Sequence record: NC_104726.1
Source of the DNA: a phage
Length of the DNA: 64,000 nt
Direction: 5' to 3' (one strand)
Part shown: in pieces, positions 2,170 through 59,019 of the stretch
Layout of the letters: every line of letters begins with the position of its first letter
Numbering within the stretch: the stretch's first letter is position 1
Program-made: the position numbers and the translations under genes
The notes under the pieces: model-generated
Database searches by the model: none
Told to the model about the DNA's origin: nothing
Seen by the model: the letters and a program-made list of their open reading frames with translations, nothing else

Positions 2170-2988
2170 TTGAGCAAGAAAGAGTCCAACGACAAATATT
2201 ACACAAACCCTGAGTATGCAGAATATCTTGTTGGTAAAGTAAAAGATAAGTATGGAAATTGTGCATACGTTGAGCCTTCTGCTGGAAGGGGTTCTTTTTC
2301 AAAACTATTTTCAGAGATACTGTCTTACGATCTAGTACCAGATCCTGAATTTGAAGGACCAACACCGTGCATTCAGGCAAACTTCTTGGAGGTGCATCCC
2401 AAGGCAGATGTCTTCATAGGTAACCCACCATTTGGCAAGAATTCATCTTTAGCTTGCAAATTCTTTAACCATTGTGCATCATTGCTAGAGCTTGGAGGGG
2501 CTATAGCCTTCATCTTGCCACGGACATTTGAAAAAATATTTTTTGCAAACAAACTGGACATGTCGATGCACCTTGTCTACAGTGAAAGGTGCCCTAAGAA
2601 CTCGTTTCTACTTAATGGCAAACCTTATGACGTGCCGTGTGTTTTCCAAATTTGGGAGAAAAAGGCGTGCAACAGGGATCCTGTAGAGATTGGGGAGAAT
2701 AAGTTATTTTCTTTTAGCACTCCAGATGACTACGACTTCTGTGTAAGACGTGTTGGGTATAATGCTGGAAAAGTATTGGGGGAGGATGACCCAAAATCTG
2801 AAGAATCTACATATTTCATAAAATCTTTAGTTGACGGTGTTGACAGAGTGTTTGCTGAATGCTATTCTTCTTTTCAAGAAGAAGCAGGTAAGACTGCTGG
2901 AATGAAGAGTATAGGCAAGAAAGAACTACAATACATTTTGGAGACCCGGTATGATCAAAAGCATAGACTTGACCAAAGAACTTACTGA
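2170..2988 (+). CDS. DNA N6-adenine (amino) methyltransferase
   Basis: Motifs YYTNPEYA, EPSAGRGSF (SAM binding), GNPPF (catalytic); no ATG before motif I, TTG start 4 nt after GGAGG. Confidence 0.6.
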   Translation: MSKKESNDKYYTNPEYAEYLVGKVKDKYGNCAYVEPSAGRGSFSKLFSEILSYDLVPDPEFEGPTPCIQANFLEVHPKADVFIGNPPFGKNSSLACKFFNHCASLLELGGAIAFILPRTFEKIFFANKLDMSMHLVYSERCPKNSFLLNGKPYDVPCVFQIWEKKACNRDPVEIGENKLFSFSTPDDYDFCVRRVGYNAGKVLGEDDPKSEESTYFIKSLVDGVDRVFAECYSSFQEEAGKTAGMKSIGKKELQYILETRYDQKHRLDQRTY

Positions 2989-3409
2989 TGCAAAAGCTTT
3001 TGGTGAGACAGCGGTACAAAGAGGCCAGGCTATGGGACTGGCACTACCTTTCGTCTTAAAAGAGCACTTTACAGATTTTCAACTTATCAAGGGTGATAAG
3101 GGAATTCTTATCCTGGAGCATAAGTTGAGTAAGAAACGCTATAAAGTTGTTTTTAATTCTAAAGCTCCAACAAAACTGGGATTCAGAACTTACAATCTTA
3201 ACCCATCCTACACTAAGGGTGTAGGAAGAGTAGAACAACAGCATTTCAGTGCCAGAGCTTCTTTAGCCCCTTTGATGCTAAATTTTTCAGGGGTGGCTTT
3301 AGGATACCTTGACAAGAAAAGAGTTCTTCATGTCCGTTTCACAGACTTTGTAACGCTTTTAGCTAACAATGAGGTAGATGAAAAGGGACGTGTAAAAACA
3401 AACTTCTAA
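2951..3409 (+). CDS. hypothetical protein
   Basis: Track ORF, co-oriented; no motif. Confidence 0.35.
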   Translation: MIKSIDLTKELTDAKAFGETAVQRGQAMGLALPFVLKEHFTDFQLIKGDKGILILEHKLSKKRYKVVFNSKAPTKLGFRTYNLNPSYTKGVGRVEQQHFSARASLAPLMLNFSGVALGYLDKKRVLHVRFTDFVTLLANNEVDEKGRVKTNF

Positions 3410-4242: not shown

Positions 4243-4829
4243 TCGGAATTGATGTAGATTTGACACTGGTAGATTCAGGAACAGCATGGTGGGAGTGGTT
4301 GGAGCGTTTGTATGGTCCAGCCAGTAAGACAGTCGCTAAACCTTCTAATGGACTGATGTATTACGATCTGTCAAAGTATTGGCCTGATCGCCCCAAAGAA
4401 AACATCATAGGGCCTTTTGATTTCTGGAGTGACCCATTCCTCTACGACTTTCTTAAGCCTGAAGAGGGGGCTATTGAGGTTATGAAAGATTTGGTGGCTC
4501 GTGGTCACAAGCTTGCATTTATCTCGGTATGCAAGAAAGGTCACCTTGCATCTAAATCAAGGTTCTTAAAGCGTTGGACCAGTGATTTTATGGATCTGGA
4601 CGATCACACCCAGGGTCACGGCTTCTACGCCACACATTTCAAAGGAAATGTGGCTGTAGATGTTATAATTGACGACAGGCATGAATACCTCAACCAATTC
4701 GCTTCACGACCTGAAGTTATTAAAATCCTAAAAGATACGCCTTATGAGCAATTCGAGGAGTTAAAGGTCAGTATTGACTATACCGCCAATAGCTGGTATA
4801 AAATAGGAAAGTTTTTAGAAGGTATTTGA
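4236..4829 (+). CDS. HAD-superfamily 5'(3')-deoxyribonucleotidase-like protein
   Basis: HAD motif I IGIDVDLTLVD at N-terminus and DVIIDDRHEY near C-terminus; start overlaps upstream stop. Confidence 0.5.
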   Translation: MLIGIDVDLTLVDSGTAWWEWLERLYGPASKTVAKPSNGLMYYDLSKYWPDRPKENIIGPFDFWSDPFLYDFLKPEEGAIEVMKDLVARGHKLAFISVCKKGHLASKSRFLKRWTSDFMDLDDHTQGHGFYATHFKGNVAVDVIIDDRHEYLNQFASRPEVIKILKDTPYEQFEELKVSIDYTANSWYKIGKFLEGI

Positions 4830-4830
4830 A

Positions 4831-5031
4831 ATGGGCAGATGTTCTAAAGGTGGCGATCCTGTAGTCAGATACGGAGACTGGCTAGAGGTATATAATCTGG
4901 AGGGAAAGCTAGTGTATGCTTCCAGGATCACCCAGGATATGTGCTCTGATATGTTTAACAGGTACCTTGCATTTAAGGCCAACATAAACCCAGACGAAAT
5001 TTCCAAAATTAAAACAAGGAGAGCTAAATAA
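4831..5031 (+). CDS. hypothetical small protein
   Basis: Track ORF, co-oriented. Confidence 0.3.
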   Translation: MGRCSKGGDPVVRYGDWLEVYNLEGKLVYASRITQDMCSDMFNRYLAFKANINPDEISKIKTRRAK

Positions 5032-6014
5032 TGCTAAAACTGTGCACTGCAAAGATTATTGCTGACAGCATTTCCGAGAAAGGTAAGCGTATAACCACTT
5101 TTGAGCTAGAGTATCCTAGAATCATTCACTCTGAACTCATGACACACCGAGTTTTCAGCAGAAACGCCATGTCCTCTCGTGCAGTACCTGTTAACAAAAT
5201 GCTGCAGCAGGTTGTGGAAAATCCTGCAATGCCAGTTCGTTTTGGTGTAAACCAGCGAGGTATGGAGGATGGTGGCGATCACGATCAGAAGATCCGTGTA
5301 GAGTATACTGATCTTGAGTTCTCTCCTGAAGAGTTCTGGAAAGAAGCTGCCAAAAATGCAGCCTGGCATGCAGAGAAGTTCGCACTTGCTGGTTACCATA
5401 AGCAAGTGTGTAACCGCTTAGTGGAGCCTTTTCAACGCATGAAAACAGTTGTAACAAGCACAGAGTGGAATAATTTTTTCCATCTCCGTTGCTGGCACGA
5501 TGCGGATCCTACGATTCAGATGTTGGCTAATTGTATGTGGGAAGCTCTTGTGAATAGCACTCCTGAAATCCTTAAACCAGGGCAATGGCACACTCCATAT
5601 GTAGAGCACGTTTATTTGGACGGAGAGTTTAACTACGCTGTACTTGACACAGAAGGAAAGCTCTGCATTCTCGATACTAAAGAAGCTCTGTCTATCAGTG
5701 CTAGTTGCTGTGCACAAGTATCTTATCGAAATATTGACAGCACGTTTGAAAAGGCAGACAGTGTGGCTAAAAAATTGATTGGTGGGGATCGTATCCATGC
5801 AAGCCCTTACGAGCACCAGGCAACACCTATGGATCACGATAACGCAATGGAACGTTTAAACTACTACCTGTCTTCATGTGAAATCACACAAGACAGCTGT
5901 GTTTGGCAGGAAGGTGTAACCCATCAAGACCGTGATGGTAAATTCTGGTCTGCCAACTTTTGTGGGTGGGTTCAGCACAGACAACTGCTTAATAACCACT
6001 TCGTGAAATGTTAA
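5031..6014 (+). CDS. ThyX-like (flavin-dependent thymidylate synthase family) protein, divergent
   Basis: THRVFSRNAMSS fits the HR-x7-S part of the ThyX RHR-x7-S signature (first R is T); AAGGAG RBS; sits among nucleotide-metabolism genes. Confidence 0.4.
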   Translation: MLKLCTAKIIADSISEKGKRITTFELEYPRIIHSELMTHRVFSRNAMSSRAVPVNKMLQQVVENPAMPVRFGVNQRGMEDGGDHDQKIRVEYTDLEFSPEEFWKEAAKNAAWHAEKFALAGYHKQVCNRLVEPFQRMKTVVTSTEWNNFFHLRCWHDADPTIQMLANCMWEALVNSTPEILKPGQWHTPYVEHVYLDGEFNYAVLDTEGKLCILDTKEALSISASCCAQVSYRNIDSTFEKADSVAKKLIGGDRIHASPYEHQATPMDHDNAMERLNYYLSSCEITQDSCVWQEGVTHQDRDGKFWSANFCGWVQHRQLLNNHFVKC

Positions 6015-31700: not shown

Positions 31701-32289
31701 TCCCACACAGGCCTGAAGAGTCAGCCAGAAATATCTGAACAGGTCCAGTTATACCACGATTTTGACCTGACCGACAGGAGTGCTGCCAGGCGGACGAAAT
31801 GGGAATCATTCTCATTCTTATAACAATTCTCAAATATCGAGGCAGTGAGGCAAATTAATAGGTGAGGCCGTTCACACAATGGCACAACATTTGCAACCTA
31901 TCTTGTGGGAGTGAATGAGAATACCTATCATTGTGAGAATAGTTATCATTACGGGCAATTTAACATAATACCCATTATGCGCACCACTGGCGATCCATAC
32001 AGGGATTGATAACATGAGTTACCGTTTACGCACATAACAATTATATTTCTTACTATTTGTGTGGGATATAGTTAGCAGCCAATAGATTAGATATTAACCT
32101 GCGGACTTCTGACCGTCCAGACGTCTAAACGCCCACACAACAAGGGTTATACATACACAACTGAATGTAAACAGGGCCGCAAAAATGCTACCATACCAGT
32201 TTGTAAATTTTCATGCAGCACTTGACAAAGAGGAGAAAAACTTGTCTGACACCTTATACACTTTCGACACAATAACGACTGTTATTATT

Positions 32290-32640
32290 TCATGTTTCAC
32301 TGTTCACGTATAGATTGTTCCCGCATAGACTGTTTACGCCTGGATAGTTTACACCTTAACTGTTTACACAGATAGGATAAGCCATGACATTCGTTTGCAT
32401 GAAAACAATTAGCAAGTTAACAATTAACAAGTTAATAATATATGACATAATATAAAAGCAGGGCAACTATTAGCAGATCTATAGTTGCCTTGCTTGTTAT
32501 GTCATGATTAACTGAATACAAGGCAACTATGATCTGATTAATAGATTGCAGACAAACTATCACGGGGGTGATGGTTACTGCTTTTATATTATGTCGCGAC
32601 TCCGTCGCGCCATGCCATTCGTTTGCATAGTTGCCTTATT
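32290..32640. repeat. iteron and nested-palindrome cluster in the non-coding region
   Basis: TGTTTAC-like iterons every 14-16 bp (32294-32368); GGCAACTAT/ATAGTTGCC inverted pairs; 18 bp inverted repeat 32444-32461 vs 32579-32596; direct repeat CCATTCGTTTGCAT at 32388 and 32614. Confidence 0.5.
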
Positions 32641-33242
32641 GTTACGAATAAAACAATTGCATTGTTAATGATTTCTTATCTTTCTCTTAGTCATCTAATG
32701 ATTACAGTCAGTATAGTTATGTACAGTAAACATTAGACGACTAAAGATTTCTCTGTTTATTATAACTTACCATTACAATTTCGGACTGTTTACCAAGAAT
32801 GTTGACACATAAGCTGATTTATGTTATGCAGTTTACACGAATAATTATTTTATGCAGGTATTGACTATTCCGTTATTCTATGGTTGGAATAAATACTTAG
32901 CAGACTATAGAATGGTGAGCGTACGTAAATTCTGAGATCTGGCGGCTATAGTTATACTCGATTTTTCACGTAGAACACGCTTTTGTGGTTGTGTAAGTGT
33001 ATGACTTATAAAGATTTTTAGTTGTTGACAAGACACTGAAGATATGCATCAGGTTAAATTTTGTGCAATAGCTGCATTACGTGCACTTTTGGGAGAGAAA
33101 ACGGGTAAAAATGGGCCTGCTACCACACAATGAAAGATTATGCAATAGTTATTTTCCATGTATATTTGTACAGTATGTGGAATTGATGGCTAGTCAATTA
33201 TTCCACTTGCCAGGTAGGGCCGTTTATGGTAGGAGAAGAGCA

Positions 33243-53258: not shown

Positions 53259-53612
53259 TTAGTGACAATCACCCCAATTACGACCACACAAGTATTCACC
53301 TGTGATCTGGAACGGGACGCCCATCATTTTAGAAGCTTGCCAGAAGCAATGCACCACCATTTCACCCACAGGGCTCCAGATAAGTTCAAGCTTTCCGTCA
53401 TCATTCAGGATAGGATCGTACACCGTGTTTCCGTCTCTGTCAACCACTTCGTTTCCGTCCTCATCCTTGCGTGCCTTTTTGTACTTATGACCGTCGAACA
53501 CATGAAGTTTGGCCTCCTGCTCTGCCTTAAATGCTTCCAGTTCTTCGATTGTGTCGAAGGTGTACACAGTCTTATACTTCGGTGTGTCAGGGACTTGAAG
53601 TTGGTACTCATC
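53259..53612 (-). CDS. family A DNA polymerase, exon 2 (motif C and C-terminus)
   Basis: Begins DEYQLQV (completes the HDE motif when joined to exon 1); C-terminal ...VPFQITGEYLCGRNWGDCH resembles the Pol I terminus ...VPLLVEVGSGENWDQAH; intron upstream ends in G. Confidence 0.7.
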   Translation of the reverse strand, partial: DEYQLQVPDTPKYKTVYTFDTIEELEAFKAEQEAKLHVFDGHKYKKARKDEDGNEVVDRDGNTVYDPILNDDGKLELIWSPVGEMVVHCFWQASKMMGVPFQITGEYLCGRNWGDCH

Positions 53613-54514
53613 CAATAGTTCAGGTAGGTCGTTAAGCTACCCCGCACCATTACGTGCACAGCCATACAGTTTCCTGTATGGATCGGACTATCTCACTACC
53701 TTGTTACCAAGGCACCTCCCATTTCGACCGCACTTGCTGGCCTACTCTACTCGCTTCTTCGCACCAATTTATGTTGGCGCTATGCTTTCGATAGTCTCTG
53801 AACGTTACTACCAGGTGTAGTTTTTAGAGATATGTTTCCACTGTCTTCTTTGCTTTATGGCTCTGACCGTCTCATAAGGGTACCCAAGATCCCTAATCTC
53901 GCATTGTCGTAGACCACTCTGTAACAGTTCGCAAATCTCCGTTACCTCATCCTCGGTCAGCACAGCGTTGGCATTATACTCACCGACTGGCCTTACTCTG
54001 AGGTCATTATCATAAGCGTGTTTGATATTTCCCCCAGGGGTGGTCCATTCAAGGTTCCAGTATGCATTGTTGTATTTGTTTCCGTCCTTATGGTTCACCC
54101 ATGTGAGCCTTTCAGGATCAGGGTTTGATACAAAGCATTCGGCAACCAAGTGGTGGACACCTTTTGTGCACTGCTTCCCTTCGATGAACATGGTTACGCA
54201 AAGGTAACCTCGACCATTATCAAAACAAAACATTGTTGTATGATCACGTTTCGATAAAGGTATTGTTCCATCATCAAACACGGTATATCCGTGATAATCA
54301 ACTGATCTAGCCATTTTAACTACACCCCTTTAGTCTTCGCTGCGGATTAGCATATTGAGCTTTTACCATGTTTAGGTGTAAAAGTCAACTTAGCCTTCCC
54401 GTCAATTAAAGAGGTTTTCGACGTGCATCACTGCACGAAGCCACAATGTTATTTATGGTAATAGATAATACGACGGACACCTTCATCGTACCACCCACGC
54501 TTCACCATTTGGTG
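53613..54514 (-). other. group I intron in the DNA polymerase gene carrying an HNH endonuclease ORF
   Basis: On the minus strand: P-like AATTGACGGGAAGG (54406-54393), Q-like TAATCCGCAGCG (54349-54338), ORF, R-like GTTCAGAGACTATCG (53803-53784), S-like GAGATAGTCC (53694-53680); terminal G at 53613; exact 5' junction uncertain by one codon. Confidence 0.7.
53808..54314 (-). CDS. intron-encoded HNH homing endonuclease
   Basis: HHLVAECF...VNHKDGNKYNNAYWNLEWTTPGGN is a canonical HNH_3 motif; lies between the Q and R intron elements. Confidence 0.8.
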   Translation of the reverse strand: MARSVDYHGYTVFDDGTIPLSKRDHTTMFCFDNGRGYLCVTMFIEGKQCTKGVHHLVAECFVSNPDPERLTWVNHKDGNKYNNAYWNLEWTTPGGNIKHAYDNDLRVRPVGEYNANAVLTEDEVTEICELLQSGLRQCEIRDLGYPYETVRAIKQRRQWKHISKNYTW

Positions 54515-56878
54515 GTGCATGAGTATCCCAACTAAGTCACACAACGATGCACCACCATTCTGTTGGTATGCATTAAGTAAAGAGTGTTTAGATCGGGTCC
54601 AGATAGCATGACCATCAAAAGAGTAGATAAACTTCTTACCCGTTGCTTCCCAGAATTTCTCCAGATCTTCTTTACGCCCCTTAAGACCAGGGTTGGCATC
54701 CCAGAGTGCATCGATTACCCTTTGTCCCAACTCTGGAGAGATGTCCAGCATATCTGCAACTTTATCTTTTTGTGCCCCATACATAACCCCATACGTGATA
54801 GGTTTACCGTCGTTACGAGACACCTCTCTACCTGCTACTTTTGTATATGCCTCAGCATTGTTTTGGTGTGCGTCCCCGTTACTTACAACATCGTAATACA
54901 GGCCGTTGTCGAACTCAAAGGCACCCCAAGCCCCGATAAGCTGCTCTAAGTTGGACCCGTCAATACCGATCTCAAAGTATCCTGGAGGAACACCCCACAG
55001 ACTACGCATCTCTTTACCCATAACCACTTTAGGAGATGGTTTAGGCATGTTTGCACAAATGCTGTGTTTCTGTCTGGAAGTGTTTGTTAATCCGGAGCTT
55101 TTAGCAGGAAGCTTATGGTCAATCTTCAAGCGTGGGTGATTAAGAAGACCAGTATCAACCTTATCCTCCTTGATTGGATCAAGGACCGATCTGCGGTTTC
55201 GCAATGATAACCACAAGACGATATCTTTAGCCATCTCTCCGTTCAATTTTTCAAGATTCGGACATAGGTGTCCAAACGTATCTTTCAGTTGCGGAGAAGT
55301 AATAAGTGCCCTAGCTTTTCTACGTATTTTCCCGAATACTTCCTTTTTAATCCTTTCGGAGTTAGGAAAGCTTCGGAACTTGTGTACTGTTGTCTGAAAC
55401 TTAGCATCAGTTTTGTTCCAGAAGTTGATAATTAGGTCACAATACTCTGACTCTAAAAGCTCGTCCATATATGCATATACTCGTGCATCAACATCTGCAT
55501 CAGGTAAAGCTTTCTTCTTGCTGTCTTTAGTTACATCTTTAGTTCTCCACATTGTTGGGAGCCAACCAGCACTGATTAGGTATCGCTTGATGTCGTCCTG
55601 ATTGCTGATTTTCATAGGTATCTTGCAGTCAGGCATTCGCTTCTGCTGCAGATCACTTATTGCCTGATCCATCAGCTCTTTAGGTAAGGGTTGTGGTGTG
55701 GAGGTGCCCTTAATATAGCCTCTCAAGAAATCAGCCATCTTATCGGGGTCTTTGCAGCCCATCTCTTCACACCATTTTATCCCCATCTTGCTGACATCTC
55801 CTGTAGAGGTAAATGCTCGCTTAGGCGGGGCTTTGAACTCTAAAGCACTCATGTCCACAGGGTAGCCAAGCTTGTCTTTTAACCATTTCCAACCATTATT
55901 GGAGATTGTCCCATCCTGGTTAAACGGCTTTTCAGGGAACTTAGGCCGCTGAGACATTGATAACTCTTTTAAAGGAAGTTGTGGTTCAACACGATCAGCG
56001 ATCTCTTTCATCCACGCATCGCAGCGGTCACGTAAAGCAATAGCCCCATCTATGTCGAAATACACACCCTGTCGAGCCTGCAGCTCCATCAGGAAATGCT
56101 GCAGCATGCCTCGGCGTAATGCATTCTTCCAGGTAATCTTCTTGAACCCTTTCGGCTTCTCTTTGGCTGGATCGTACATAAAGTTCTGCATGTCAGATTT
56201 GCCGTAGAATACACCTTTTGATTCCGCTACCAGCTCTTTCCAGAGCAGCTCCTGGATGATAACGTCCTCGAATACACGATCAACATACTTCCACAGAGGT
56301 AAATTTCTCCAGTCATCAATTTTAACCTTCTGGTTTCCTAAAGCGTACCCCCACGCCATTAGGCCATGAGGACCTACCTGCTGCATACGTTTTGTAACAG
56401 GATTGTATACAGAATCAGGGCATCCTTTAGGTAACGGTCTGTCGGGCCATAGTATACGACTCATTGGCAGAGTGTCGAACAGGTTCACCTGATGATTATT
56501 GATTGTCCCCATACACTTGGGATCACGGAACATATCAAAATGAATACCAGACAGCTTCTCCATCAAGATAAAGTCATAACTAAAACAGTTGTGACAACTT
56601 AATGATGTGGGTGACCAATCGGAGTTCCCGGTTAACCACCATTCAAGCTGGCTGAAATCCGCAATACGGACAGAGCAGCTAGGATAGATATCTTGCTTTG
56701 CCAGCATAAATTGTTTTGCTTTTTCAACCTCCTCTTCACTGTAATGAGATCTATCATTGATAGGCAAAAACAACATAAAATTATTTTTATTCAACTCTTT
56801 AAACAGGCCACAATGGTAGTAAAGATCTTCCTCGTCCAGAAGACCTGAGGCCTCAAAGTCAAAATTCCACATACTCAT
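54515..56878 (-). CDS. family A DNA polymerase, exon 1 (3'-5' exo and polymerase motifs A/B)
   Basis: N-terminal FDFEASGL (exo I); motif B ...KPITYGVMYGAQ; frame runs on 21 codons into the intron after ...GILMH; AAGGAGA RBS. Confidence 0.85.
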
Positions 56879-56940: not shown

Positions 56941-59019
56941 TTAAAAAGGCGTTTCATCATCCTCAAAACCAGGGACCGGGTCAGAGGATGGATCATCGTA
57001 CTGGAGGTCTTCCTGCGTGTCAACAGGCTTAACAGTAGGAGTTACAACCTTATCAGCCACAACCTTGCCCATAGGTGTTTCTACAACTGCATGCTCCTGA
57101 TCCTCAAACATAGCCTGAGGTCTCCAAACAACCTCCCCACCTTCTCCGTCTGTAAACATTTGCATTTCTTTGTCCCAGTACCAATTACTGGCATCATGGA
57201 ACTTACCTGTGTGCGGGTCCATAACCAAAGTGTCAGCAATACCTAGAGTTTTTGCTGGACGGTTTTTAAGACCTACCAGACGGACACGTCCACGAGAACG
57301 ATCCACCATTTCTTCGGCCTCGACACCTATGACTACCCAACTCAACTGTTCAAGCCCCGCCGATCCTCGCAAATTCTCTTTTCGCACAGGATACCAGAAA
57401 GGTAACGGGTTACCATCCTTGTCCTTAGGAGGCACAATCTCTGTACGTTTGAGGTGAGCGATCACCAAGATAAACACGTTAAACTGCTTACAAAACGCAG
57501 CCAGCTGAGTCATAGCCATGTCCAGTTCTTTTCGCTCATCCTTAACATTAAGCCCTGAAATTACCATGGACAGGTGATCCAGCACAATATAACGGCAATG
57601 GTACAGGCAAACCATTTGCTTAAGCTTGGTAATCAACTCGTCCACCGGAATAGATCCGAAATGTTTGAACACTTTGATTTTTCCAGCTTTTGCCCATGAT
57701 TGGTGAATCTCTGCGTGTTCTTGATCAGTTAAAAACTGGCTAGGATCTTCAACAAACTCTTTAACATCAAACCCTAACTGGTTTGCATACAAGGAGTTAA
57801 TTGCTTCCTCTGGGTCCTCCTCAAGATGGATCATACATAGACGATCATCCTCTTCATAGTCATCAGCCTTCGGGCATGTCGGGTCCATTAGGTATCTTGC
57901 AATACAATGTTCCAGTTTTTTAGCTACAGTTGTTTTACCGCCCCCTGATGGCCCTGTAAGCATTACGAGTGTCCCTTTGTGCAAGCCTTTTAGCATTTTT
58001 TGCAGTTTTGGGAACTCTGCGCTGATATCTACCCCGTTGGAAGTCTTTTTCCGCAAAGACTCGATAGAGAAGTCTTCTAAATCCGACACAGCATCAGGCA
58101 CATATTTAACAGGGTGCCGGAACATGTTGACAATATCTTCCAGCTTTTTAGCCTTCAGCATGTCACGGATATCTTTTACCCCGTCAGGGTCATTTACTTC
58201 ACCAGGGTATTCTACGTGGTAAACGTTATCAGCCATCAAAAATGCTGCGATATTGTGCGTGGCCTCAACACCTTTAATGACGTGTTTTTGCTTCTCTACC
58301 TCGTTAGCTGCATCGTTATCCATTGCCAGCACAACTGTTCCATAGCTACGGATAAACTTCTCATTGTTTGCAAAAGTATCTACTGCGTTTGCACATCCAC
58401 AGTTAATTCCAACAAAAGGCAGGCAGGGTTTTCCTGCCAGATCACCACCGTTGATAACTGCGTCGATCCCGTCCTGGACCTCTTTAGCCCACTGCTTCAC
58501 CTTTGCCGGGGCTTTAGCGTTGGTGAGAATCCCTTTTACTTGTATCTGATATGCAGCCTGCCATGCTGCAATAACATCACCTTCTCCCTCACAAACGTTA
58601 ATCTGCTTACGGTTGTTGGAAGATGCACACAGCTTTTGACCAAACATCTGGGAGTTGGCCTTTACGATGCCAACAACGGAGAAGTGGCCCCTTTGTTCTT
58701 TAGGAATAGTCCAGTCACGCTTTTTGAAACCGGACAGATTTCCGTAGCGGTCGTAATATGGGAAATATGTTGCAGTGACTGTCACACCGTCTTCTTGTGA
58801 CAATGCTGATCGCACACCAAAATATTGTGCAGCCATCAGACCGATATTTTGTTGTGGGACAGGGACAATTTTAGTATTTTCTAAAACAGTCTCTACAGTT
58901 TCAACCTCTTTTTCATCACGATAGTCTCGTTTCACACTTCCCCCACTTTTATACTTAGTTGCTTTCGGGTTTGGCTCACCGAAACGGTTGTATGCAGATG
59001 CCATAAATTTACTTCCCAT
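56941..59019 (-). CDS. primase-helicase (TOPRIM primase fused to DnaB-like helicase)
   Basis: TOPRIM-like VCEGEGDVIAAW and LAMDNDAANE; Walker A GPSGGGKTT and Walker B IVLDHL; AAGGAG RBS. Confidence 0.8.
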   Translation of the reverse strand: MGSKFMASAYNRFGEPNPKATKYKSGGSVKRDYRDEKEVETVETVLENTKIVPVPQQNIGLMAAQYFGVRSALSQEDGVTVTATYFPYYDRYGNLSGFKKRDWTIPKEQRGHFSVVGIVKANSQMFGQKLCASSNNRKQINVCEGEGDVIAAWQAAYQIQVKGILTNAKAPAKVKQWAKEVQDGIDAVINGGDLAGKPCLPFVGINCGCANAVDTFANNEKFIRSYGTVVLAMDNDAANEVEKQKHVIKGVEATHNIAAFLMADNVYHVEYPGEVNDPDGVKDIRDMLKAKKLEDIVNMFRHPVKYVPDAVSDLEDFSIESLRKKTSNGVDISAEFPKLQKMLKGLHKGTLVMLTGPSGGGKTTVAKKLEHCIARYLMDPTCPKADDYEEDDRLCMIHLEEDPEEAINSLYANQLGFDVKEFVEDPSQFLTDQEHAEIHQSWAKAGKIKVFKHFGSIPVDELITKLKQMVCLYHCRYIVLDHLSMVISGLNVKDERKELDMAMTQLAAFCKQFNVFILVIAHLKRTEIVPPKDKDGNPLPFWYPVRKENLRGSAGLEQLSWVVIGVEAEEMVDRSRGRVRLVGLKNRPAKTLGIADTLVMDPHTGKFHDASNWYWDKEMQMFTDGEGGEVVWRPQAMFEDQEHAVVETPMGKVVADKVVTPTVKPVDTQEDLQYDDPSSDPVPGFEDDETPF

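Follow-up and report, generated by a model that had tools for sequence, protein, structure and literature searches.

The window analysed here, a 64,000-nt stretch of sequence record NC_104726.1, comes from a Vequintavirus (rV5-like) that infects E. coli. Its minus strand holds three ORFs that had been listed in a first-pass annotation: one of 809 aa at 54449..56878, one of 168 aa at 53808..54314, and a third, at 53259..53615, with the translation (M)DEYQLQV...GRNWGDCH. The locus is almost certainly a family A DNA polymerase gene whose motif C is interrupted by a mobile group I intron with an HNH endonuclease gene inside it. The first-pass annotation had arrived at this headline reading, and it now finds support in a covariance-model match, covariation, a gap-free match to an uninterrupted allele, identity to a GenBank protein and alignment with the T7 enzyme.

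Exon 1 of the polymerase gene (54455..56878, minus strand) has 808 codons and ends in ...RRIIYYH, with CAU as its final codon (...UAC CAU). Unspliced, it continues through one intron codon (AAA) and meets a UAA stop (54451..54449), where the 809-aa entry of the ORF list ends. This ORF was thought to lack motif C, and it does, since its match to Pfam DNA_pol_A stops at profile position 261 of 381. Exon 2 (53259..53612, minus strand; 117 codons and a stop, DEYQLQV...GEYLCGRNWGDCH) encodes the motif C carboxylates D and E, and its frame matches the C-terminal third, to the end, of the phage DNA polymerase profile phrog_8888 (E=4.5e-58), confirming its earlier assignment as the polymerase C-terminus. 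Joining the exons lengthens the DNA_pol_A match from profile position 261 to 348, at a score (32.6 bits, E=5.6e-8) slightly below the 34.3 cut-off. Exo motif I and motifs A and B of exon 1 align to T7 DNA polymerase, and residues 633-813 of the spliced protein align to T7 residues 468-658, with GIDGSNLE, RNDGKPITYGVMYGA and YYHDEYQ as motifs A, B and C. Motif C of the spliced product, YYHDEYQL, is aligned to T7 WVHDEIQV. The T7 comparison, which had been suggested as a check on the joined protein, places the splice junction between the H and the DE of motif C, at T7 H653|D654. Splicing thus brings motifs A, B and C and the catalytic Asp and Glu together in one polypeptide of the family A (T7-type) kind.

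The boundaries of the intron are fixed by comparison with intron-less alleles. The last 200 nt of exon 1 match the intron-less CarlMeissner allele as far as 54455, and exon 2 is joined directly to exon 1 in CarlMeissner, Murica, MiataMamis and ECP32. The two exons add up to 2778 nt, the length of the uninterrupted CarlMeissner gene, and the spliced protein matches the CarlMeissner polymerase gap-free (891/926 identical), with IIYYH|DEYQLQV in both. In all 13 alleles examined (13/13), the encoded residues flanking the splice site are identical. The ligated exons form a continuous reading frame with a 925-aa product, and the predicted spliced RNA reads ...UAUUACCAU|GAUGAGUAC... across the junction (also given as ...UAUUACCAU|GAUGAGUACCAA). 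The junction first proposed, GILMH|DEYQLQV, has to be moved 60 nt (20 codons) farther downstream, to IIYYH|DEYQLQV, well outside the uncertainty of about one codon that had been allowed for it. A junction at GILMH would lose 20 residues (HQMVKRGWYDEGVRRIIYYH) that are kept in every intron-less homologue and can be aligned to T7 polymerase. Because the true exon end (54455) lies 20 codons past GILMH, the 5' exon does end in U, contrary to the first description; the U of its terminal CAU pairs with a G of the internal guide.

The group I intron occupies 53613..54454 on the minus strand and measures 842 nt, somewhat less than the roughly 900 nt estimated earlier. It starts AAAUAACAUUGUGG and ends ...GAACUAUUG; its 3' end, ...CUAUUG, has the terminal G (53613) of a group I intron. 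The Rfam group I model RF00028 matches 54464..53663 (-) over model positions 1-253 with 41.2 bits (E=1.1e-8 for the local search, 4.2e-7 for the whole window), and this is the sole Rfam hit in the window at E<=0.001. The full-length match, with the ORF inside P6, bears out the suggestion of a group I core with an ORF between the Q and R elements. In the proposed RF00028 check the full model is matched in E-value mode, and a default Rfam scan of the window at the gathering threshold (50 bits) gives no match. ORF-free copies exceed this cut-off, with 75.6 bits for HMD-6, which has the same backbone, and 64.7 bits for rV5 and RudolfGeigy, and the window copy probably scores below gathering because of the 510-nt ORF insertion in P6a. 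Taken alone, the gathering-level negative would have misled, as the intron is visible only in E-value mode. An intein is ruled out by the UAA that the frame meets two codons into the insert, and a chance match by the E-values and the covariation.

P1 (54441..54458, minus strand, as are all helices below) is formed by exon CCAU and intron AA, which pair with the guide UUGUGG (54446..54441), leaving the exon-final U at 54455 in the U·G wobble typical of group I 5' splice sites. All six pairs, including the U·G, are invariant in 14/14 homologues, and the MFE fold also recovers P1. A P10 helix is predicted as well, in which CAUU (54448..54445) could pair with the first four bases of exon 2, GAUG. 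The 5' half of the ribozyme core, from P2 to the 5' strand of P6 (54335..54436 in the helix map), consists of P2 (54436..54423) with a GNRA loop, the 5' strand of P3 (54415..54409), the 5' strand of P4, which is the P element (54404..54398), P5/P5a/P5b (54395..54349), the 3' strand of P4, which is the Q element (54346..54341), and the 5' strand of P6 (54340..54338).

The HNH homing endonuclease gene (53808..54314, minus strand; 168 aa) lies within the P6a loop and has a Shine-Dalgarno-like AAGGGG 5' of its AUG. Its annotation as an HNH endonuclease holds: the ORF matches phrog_59 (HNH endonuclease, E=9e-38) and, over residues 12-100 (VHHLVA...VNHKDGNKYNN...NLEW), the structure of I-HmuI (PDB 1U3E, E=4.5e-6), with a score of 17.7 bits against Pfam HNH_3 (cut-off 24.8). 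From the catalytic motif and the family match, the product appears to be an I-HmuI-like HNH enzyme, and the ORF also resembles a large family of phage HNH proteins. The identical sequence is found on 74 contigs, and UniRef names it 'Homing endonuclease, Vequintavirus'. The ORF is bordered by a P6a/P6b stem read from the sequence, whose 5' strand ACUAAAGGGGUGUAG (54320..54334) pairs with 53820..53807. The 3' strand CUACACCUGGUAGU (53807..53820) overlaps the 3' end of the endonuclease ORF (final codons and UAG stop). The 5' strand includes the ribosome-binding site of the endonuclease gene, and the pairing may sequester it. Equivalent stems border the ORFs in KpnK54, A5-4 and PBES02, whereas copies without the homing endonuclease gene (HEG) have short hairpins instead.

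The 3' half of the ribozyme (53613..53804 in the helix map) begins with the 3' strand of P6 (53804..53802) and the 5' strand of P7, which is the R element CAGAGACUA (53800..53792). These are followed by a P7.1 region (53791..53746), a GUA linker (53745..53743), P7.2 (GGCC...GGUC, 53742..53726), the 3' strand of P3 (53720..53714), P8 with a GNRA loop (53713..53698) and the 3' strand of P7, which is the S element UAGUCCG (53690..53684). P9 with a GAAA loop (53681..53662), P9.1 (53657..53644) and P9.2 (53642..53622) complete the structure. P7.1 is a simple GNRA hairpin in rV5 and has an extended form in the window, while the GUA linker before P7.2 is invariant in the homologue set, and P7.2 is 100% paired with two covarying pairs. 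P7.1 and P7.2 between P7 and the 3' strand of P3, linked by G-U-A, are the hallmark given for subgroup IA2 (PMC3428280), and by this hallmark the architecture appears IA2-like.

Covariation supports the fold. Fourteen homologues from Vequintavirus, Avunavirus, Certrevirus and Klebsiella and Vibrio phages were compared as ORF-trimmed sequences over 84 modelled pairs. Of the cells, 94.0% are paired, compared with 35-39% in controls with slid partners, the structure having been derived partly from the window sequence and the unslid register being favoured for that reason. Changes on both sides occur in 35 pairs (2-9 in the slid controls), a value equalled in 0/500 shuffles. Compensatory changes are found in P2 (5/5 pairs), P3 (2) and P4/P5 (2), and in the 3' half in P7 (2), P7.2 (2), P8 (5), P9 (5), P9.1 (1) and P9.2 (3). 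The 3'-half helices are 95-100% paired across the set, and P5a/P5b only 71%. The conserved P3-P8 core is thus present, with the P, Q, R and S elements in order, a P3/P7 pseudoknot, and covariation in P3, P4, P7 and P8.

Splicing of this intron would follow the usual group I pathway. The polymerase gene would be transcribed as a single pre-mRNA, in which the intron RNA would fold into the P1-P9.2 ribozyme. An external guanosine would attack after the exon-final U (54455), held in the U·G pair of P1, and the released 3'-OH of exon 1 would then attack after the terminal G of the intron (53613). In-frame ligation of the exons would give a T7-type DNA polymerase of 925 aa whose active site, ...YYHDEYQ..., is uninterrupted, and an unspliced message, ending two codons into the intron, would give a polymerase without the motif C carboxylates. 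That the RNA is catalytically active in this phage is probable by analogy with the Pectobacterium phage CB7 intron, which has the same junction and is spliced in infected cells. The 168-aa HNH enzyme may cut or nick the intron-less polymerase alleles of co-infecting relatives, and repair would then copy the intron into the cut allele.

The locus is polymorphic among relatives. In about 120 related records it holds an intron with HEG, an intron without HEG (276 or 328 nt) or no intron, and at least five states occur at the one fixed site, two of them being different HEG-less backbones (328 nt and 276 nt). HEG-less copies are present in rV5, RudolfGeigy, HMD-6 and SYGMH1, among others, and are common in the genus. 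Homing would account for the coexistence of all three kinds of allele within the genus. The intron-less alleles are themselves of two types: Murica and MiataMamis have the same flanks as intron-bearing alleles (target GATGAGTACCAA), and CarlMeissner and ECP32 carry four silent third-position changes in the first four codons of exon 2 (GAC GAA TAT CAG; target GACGAATATCAG). It is possible, though we hold this only tentatively and consider it rather unlikely, that the locus is a live snapshot of the homing cycle with the signature of an arms race, mixed infections having selected the CarlMeissner-type allele as a target that resists the endonuclease. If so, the I-HmuI-like enzyme would work as a nickase, and the phage that carries it would have an edge in competition with co-infecting relatives. 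I-HmuI and I-HmuII give SPO1 and SP82 such an advantage.

The same abundance of HEG-less derivatives is expected of the degeneration phase of a homing cycle, and could mean that the window's intron is a decaying relic, with poor or cofactor-dependent splicing, a dead endonuclease and vertical inheritance in place of active homing. This appears very unlikely, as the endonuclease ORF is intact and unchanged on all 74 contigs, its HNH residues align to those of the active I-HmuI, and compensatory changes maintain the pairing of the ribozyme helices. Removal of the intron must also still take place, given that the phage presumably cannot do without its polymerase.

Another reading leaves the insertion in the RNA, so that the polymerase would consist of two chains, of 809 aa and about 117 aa, that come together post-translationally. 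A precedent for such an arrangement is NrdA of Aeromonas phage Aeh1, whose gene is interrupted by the endonuclease gene mobE, and many GenBank records, such as those of APECc02, FV3, CM1 and Mangalyan, list the locus as two separate 'DNA polymerase' CDSs. The CB7 paper (PMC7344957) also describes one unspliced HNH-associated insertion, which lies in another gene. Yet the downstream piece has at best a UUG start, with no Shine-Dalgarno-like sequence in ...GACCUACCUGAACUAUUG, and the catalytic Asp and Glu of motif C would be parted from motifs A and B. A complete, covarying group I core, with its U·G 5' site and its terminal G falling exactly at the borders seen in the intron-less alleles, also speaks against it, as does the splicing of the CB7 homologue at this junction. 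A two-chain polymerase is therefore highly improbable, and a spliced group I intron remains our reading of the locus.

The feature is real, was correctly read in outline and is already known. Phage AlexBoehm (Bas56, MZ501048) is 98.7% identical in DNA at this locus and has the same intron with essentially no difference, and its polymerase CDS is annotated as a two-piece join around a 'putative homing endonuclease'. The window's spliced protein is the AlexBoehm protein QXV75624.1, letter for letter. The intron boundaries in the BASEL collection, to which AlexBoehm belongs, were placed through comparative genomics (PMC8594841). The same intron is copied in FV3, APECc02, CM1 and other Vequintavirus genomes, and a literature search found no publication on the ribozyme structure, a splicing test or RNA data for any Vequintavirus copy. 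The rV5 genome paper mentions introns only in the terminase gene, gives the polymerase as 775 aa and holds no prior description of the polymerase intron (PMC3606486). The gain for biology is small, since the intron is of a classical kind and a correct joined annotation exists in the 98.7%-identical phage. The rV5 reference genome and many other Vequintavirus records show the polymerase as two genes or place spurious ORFs over the intron, and the practical value lies in annotation, where the exact splice sites would correct these records. Intron gain, endonuclease loss and the resistance of target sites could also be studied conveniently on the natural series of alleles in the genus.

Intron CB7_50 interrupts the polymerase gene of Pectobacterium phage vB_PatM_CB7 (Certrevirus, Vequintavirinae) at the junction seen in the window (IIYYH|DEYQLEV; Rfam 46.6 bits), with ribozyme 5' and 3' sequences recognisably homologous to those of the window (AAGUAACAUUGUGGCUU..., ...GAUAUAGUCCGAUCC...). 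It differs in being 687 nt long, in carrying a different and shorter HNH gene (384 nt) that starts further upstream in the ribozyme, and in sharing its gene with a second intron farther upstream. Its splicing in infected cells was established by RT-PCR and Sanger sequencing (PMC7344957, Table 3).

The podoviruses phiI (AY769989) and W31 (AY769990), whose polymerase is much closer to the T7 type, carry introns of similar architecture, described in 2004. They are summarised as IA2 introns with P7.1/P7.2 linked by G-U-A and an HNH ORF in P6a, located at site 881 of E. coli Pol I (PMC3428280). We equate that site with the His of H-D-E in motif C, which would match the window's junction (T7 H653|D654). 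Klebsiella phage Roth32, reached through protein hits of the endonuclease, was considered as a T7-like carrier of the same intron and rejected: its polymerase intron with an HNH gene (weak Rfam score, 26.3 bits) lies upstream of motif A and, being at a different site, says nothing on the motif C site.

Phage DNA polymerase genes have been known since SPO1 to harbour mobile group I introns that carry HNH endonucleases. The polymerase introns of SPO1, SP82 and Bastille are group I and encode the nicking enzymes I-HmuI, I-HmuII and I-BasI, which belong to the same HNH protein family as the window's endonuclease. These introns reside in phages of Gram-positive bacteria, and as far as compared their ribozyme sequence is unrelated to that of the window. 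The insertion site also differs from the window's, being site 674 in the fingers subdomain (PMC3428280).

The polymerase of this Vequintavirus (rV5-like) coliphage is encoded on the minus strand in two pieces, downstream of a T7 gp4-like primase/helicase with DnaB_C and AAA_25 domains (59019..56941). The first, an 809-aa ORF (56878..54449), matches Pfam DNA_pol_A only over profile positions 137-261 of 381, and so lacks motif C and the C-terminus. The missing piece lies about 0.9 kb further on, as a 118-aa frame starting (M)DEYQLQV (53615..53259, minus) that resembles the C-terminal end of the phage DNA polymerase family phrog_8888 (E=4.5e-58). Between them is an endonuclease-like ORF of 168 aa (54314..53808, minus). 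The first-pass annotation described all three elements and read them as a family A polymerase split at motif C by a group I intron carrying an HNH endonuclease. The feature is real and this headline reading is correct, with errors in the junction and in a remark on the 5' exon.

Exon 1 ends ...CGU AUU AUC UAU UAC CAU, followed by AAA UAA. The sequence CCAU|AA at this border pairs with UUGUGG 7-12 nt downstream, and the U·G wobble of P1 falls on the U of CAU (54455), contrary to the remark that the 5' exon does not end in U. At its 3' border the intron finishes in ...CUAUUG (G at 53613), immediately before GAU GAG UAC; it is 842 nt long, not about 900. The exons (2424 and 354 nt) sum to 2778 nt, or 925 codons, and the polymerase of the intron-less phage CarlMeissner is one 2778-nt CDS. 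The spliced protein aligns to it with zero gaps (891/926 identical), both reading LCDLVGILMHHQMVKRGWYDEGVRRIIYYHDEYQLQVPDT at the junction. This gap-free alignment with intron-less relatives settles the junction and, with the P1 pairing, places the originally proposed GILMH|DEYQLQV 20 codons too far upstream.

The spliced protein aligns with T7 DNA polymerase (2AJQ, 6N7W) residues 468 to 658, through motif A (GIDGSNLE; T7 GIDASGLE), motif B (RNDGKPITYGVMYGA; T7 RDNAKTFIYGFLYGA) and, at the end of the alignment, motif C (YYHDEYQL; T7 WVHDEIQV). The intron therefore lies between the His and Asp-Glu codons, at T7 H653|D654, which bears out the split at motif C. With splicing, the DNA_pol_A match reaches profile position 348 instead of 261. 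Translation of an unspliced message would end two codons inside the intron, and its product would lack the motif C carboxylates.

Every residue of the spliced protein agrees with GenBank QXV75624.1, 'DNA polymerase [Escherichia phage AlexBoehm]'. AlexBoehm (Bas56 of the BASEL collection) shares 98.7% identity with the window along 3.7 kb, and its polymerase CDS is annotated as a two-piece join around a 'putative homing endonuclease'; the BASEL authors used comparative genomics to set intron boundaries (PMC8594841). The rV5 genome paper reports introns solely in the terminase and a polymerase of 775 aa (PMC3606486), so the type-phage literature missed the intron, whereas later GenBank annotation did not. 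rV5 (NC_011041) has an ORF-less group I intron of 276 nt at the same site (2744..3019 in its locus, L005; Rfam 64.7 bits). Its record splits the gene into two 'DNA polymerase' CDSs, with the small hypothetical ORF226 and ORF227 overlying the intron.

In a default scan at gathering thresholds, neither RF00028 nor any other Rfam family was found in the window. In E-value mode, RF00028 gives a minus-strand match along the full model (1-253) at 54464..53663, with 41.2 bits against a gathering cut-off of 50 bits (E=1.1e-8), and is the sole Rfam match at E<=0.001 across 64 kb. ORF-less copies pass the gathering score (HMD-6, 75.6 bits; rV5 and RudolfGeigy, 64.7; Aya, 60.8), so the ORF insertion is most likely the sole cause of the shortfall. 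The alignment has a U·G pair within P1, Q, R and S elements (AAUCCGCAGC, GUUCAGAGACUA and GAGAUAGUCC) and, in P6, a 510-nt insertion containing the endonuclease ORF.

Fourteen introns were aligned with ORFs trimmed from P6, and the mapped fold, of the standard group I type, comprises P1, P2, P3, P4, P5/5a/5b, P6, P7, P7.1a, P7.2, P8, P9, P9.1 and P9.2, with a P3/P7 pseudoknot. Part of this structure came from the window sequence itself, a bias towards the unslid register; in that register 94.0% of cells hold standard pairs (35-39% when slid by 1-3 columns), 35/84 pairs are changed on both sides (2-9 slid) and the covariation score is 0.325 (0.05-0.08 slid), each value being reached by 0/500 shuffles. 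The double changes between distinct backbones are many and do not depend on the register bias. All P2 pairs show compensatory change, P3, P7, P7.2, P8, P9, P9.1 and P9.2 covary, and P1 is invariant, including its U·G. An invariant GUA before P7.2 and a P7.1 element upstream fit the subgroup IA2 criterion quoted in PMC3428280. The MFE fold of the HMD-6 copy, which lacks the homing endonuclease ORF, independently recovers P1, P2, P3, P6a, P8, P9, P9.1 and P9.2 (z=-2.7).

The 168-aa protein is related to phrog_59, HNH endonuclease (E=9e-38), and aligns through VHHLVA...VNHKDGNKYNN...NLEW with I-HmuI (1U3E, E=4.5e-6), the structure-solved nicking homing endonuclease of the SPO1 polymerase intron, suggesting a putative homing endonuclease. 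Both matches support its earlier description as an HNH ORF; Pfam HNH_3 scores 17.7, under its cut-off of 24.8. Relatives occur in 1504 phage records (tblastn), and the exact sequence on 74 contigs, with the UniRef name 'Homing endonuclease', Vequintavirus. The ribosome-binding region of the ORF (ACUAAAGGGGUGUAG, 54334..54320) can pair with its last codons and stop (CUACACCUGGUAGU, 53820..53807), so a folded ribozyme would presumably mask the site where endonuclease translation starts. A decaying, immobile intron is very unlikely overall, although the homing function may be lost; its removal would be needed even then, since the phage presumably cannot do without this polymerase.

Several allele states appear among 120 matching phage records. 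AlexBoehm, FV3, APECc02, CM1 and others have the 842-843 nt intron with the endonuclease gene; HMD-6 and SYGMH1 have 328 nt of the same backbone, a 15-nt hairpin replacing the ORF. The ORF-less 276-nt form of rV5, RudolfGeigy and Aya differs in P2, P5, P6, P7, P7.1, P8 and P9, and CarlMeissner, Murica, V18, MiataMamis and ECP32 have no intron. The first four codons of exon 2 (53601..53612) are GATGAGTACCAA in Murica, MiataMamis and all intron-bearing alleles, and GACGAATATCAG in CarlMeissner and ECP32. These four consecutive silent third-position changes directly follow the insertion site on its 3' side and may mark a variant or resistant target of the endonuclease, or else the border of a co-conversion tract. 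Under the name 'Campylobacter phage', GenBank has sixteen records (MG065635, MG065644, MG065690 and 13 more) that are 91-92% identical to the window polymerase locus and carry the same intron variants; their stated host, Campylobacter jejuni, looks odd for rV5-like coliphages.

Far outside the genus, homologous introns occupy the same junction in Av-05 and 18-1-2 (Avunavirus, VIYYH|DEIQVQV), Klebsiella K54_rec6 and KP12, A5-4, Cronobacter PBES02, Pectobacterium CB7 (Certrevirus) and Vibrio phages K412 and 10AMN (ILSYH|DEFTVEC). Published RT-PCR with Sanger sequencing from infected cells demonstrated splicing of the CB7 intron (CB7_50), which lies between CB7_51 and CB7_49 (PMC7344957). Many records annotate the locus as if the insertion stayed unspliced and the polymerase were two subunits, but this is a very improbable reading, given the intact covarying ribozyme precisely at allele-defined borders, the downstream piece without a plausible start signal, and the splicing of the homologous CB7 intron.

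Polymerase exon 1 is 3399 nt, against 2430, in Mangalyan (locus L002, 519..3917) and 241Ecol014PP (L009, 319..3717), with an extra 323 aa in frame after ...NGDAH (window protein residue 671). The insert starts CYSGDTQIL, ends ...VAVCGN, then C, and weakly matches Hint_2 (E=7e-5); it looks like an intein in an already intron-bearing gene, and is absent from the window. Av-05 (L007, 2583..3300 and 4762..5400), K54_rec6 (L011, 2325..3040 and 4479..5141) and CB7 (L013), other Vequintavirinae, have a second group I intron (Rfam 39-47 bits) further upstream in the polymerase gene, which has its own, different HNH gene, and a further HNH gene adjoins the polymerase 3' end. In this subfamily, homing elements have a hotspot at the polymerase locus. 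Elsewhere in the window, about 31886..33080 (1.2 kb) has zero ORFs of at least 50 aa on both strands and a G+C of 0.35-0.37 (about 0.43-0.46 nearby); plus-strand genes from the left and minus-strand genes from the right meet there, and it corresponds to the unannotated AlexBoehm gap 90469..92994 if the genomes are collinear. No tRNA genes were found in the window. The T7-like Klebsiella phage Roth32 has a polymerase intron (L025, 2390..3054) whose insertion point (...TNTFR|) differs, lying upstream of motif A. It scores weakly for Rfam group I (26.3 bits), and its HNH-like ORF has the annotation 'zinc-binding loop region of homing endonuclease'.

PMC3428280 lists three insertion sites for introns in the family A polymerase genes of phages. 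In E. coli numbering these are 674 (SPO1, SP82, Bastille, Pf-WMP3), 676 (phiL7) and 881 (T7-like phiI and W31; Bonocora and Shub 2004), and the phiI and W31 introns are given as IA2 with an HNH ORF within P6a. Pol I residues H881-D882-E883 are the motif C triad. On this numbering, the window intron has the site and architecture described for the phiI/W31 introns. It is already annotated publicly, and is of a classical, experimentally characterised kind.
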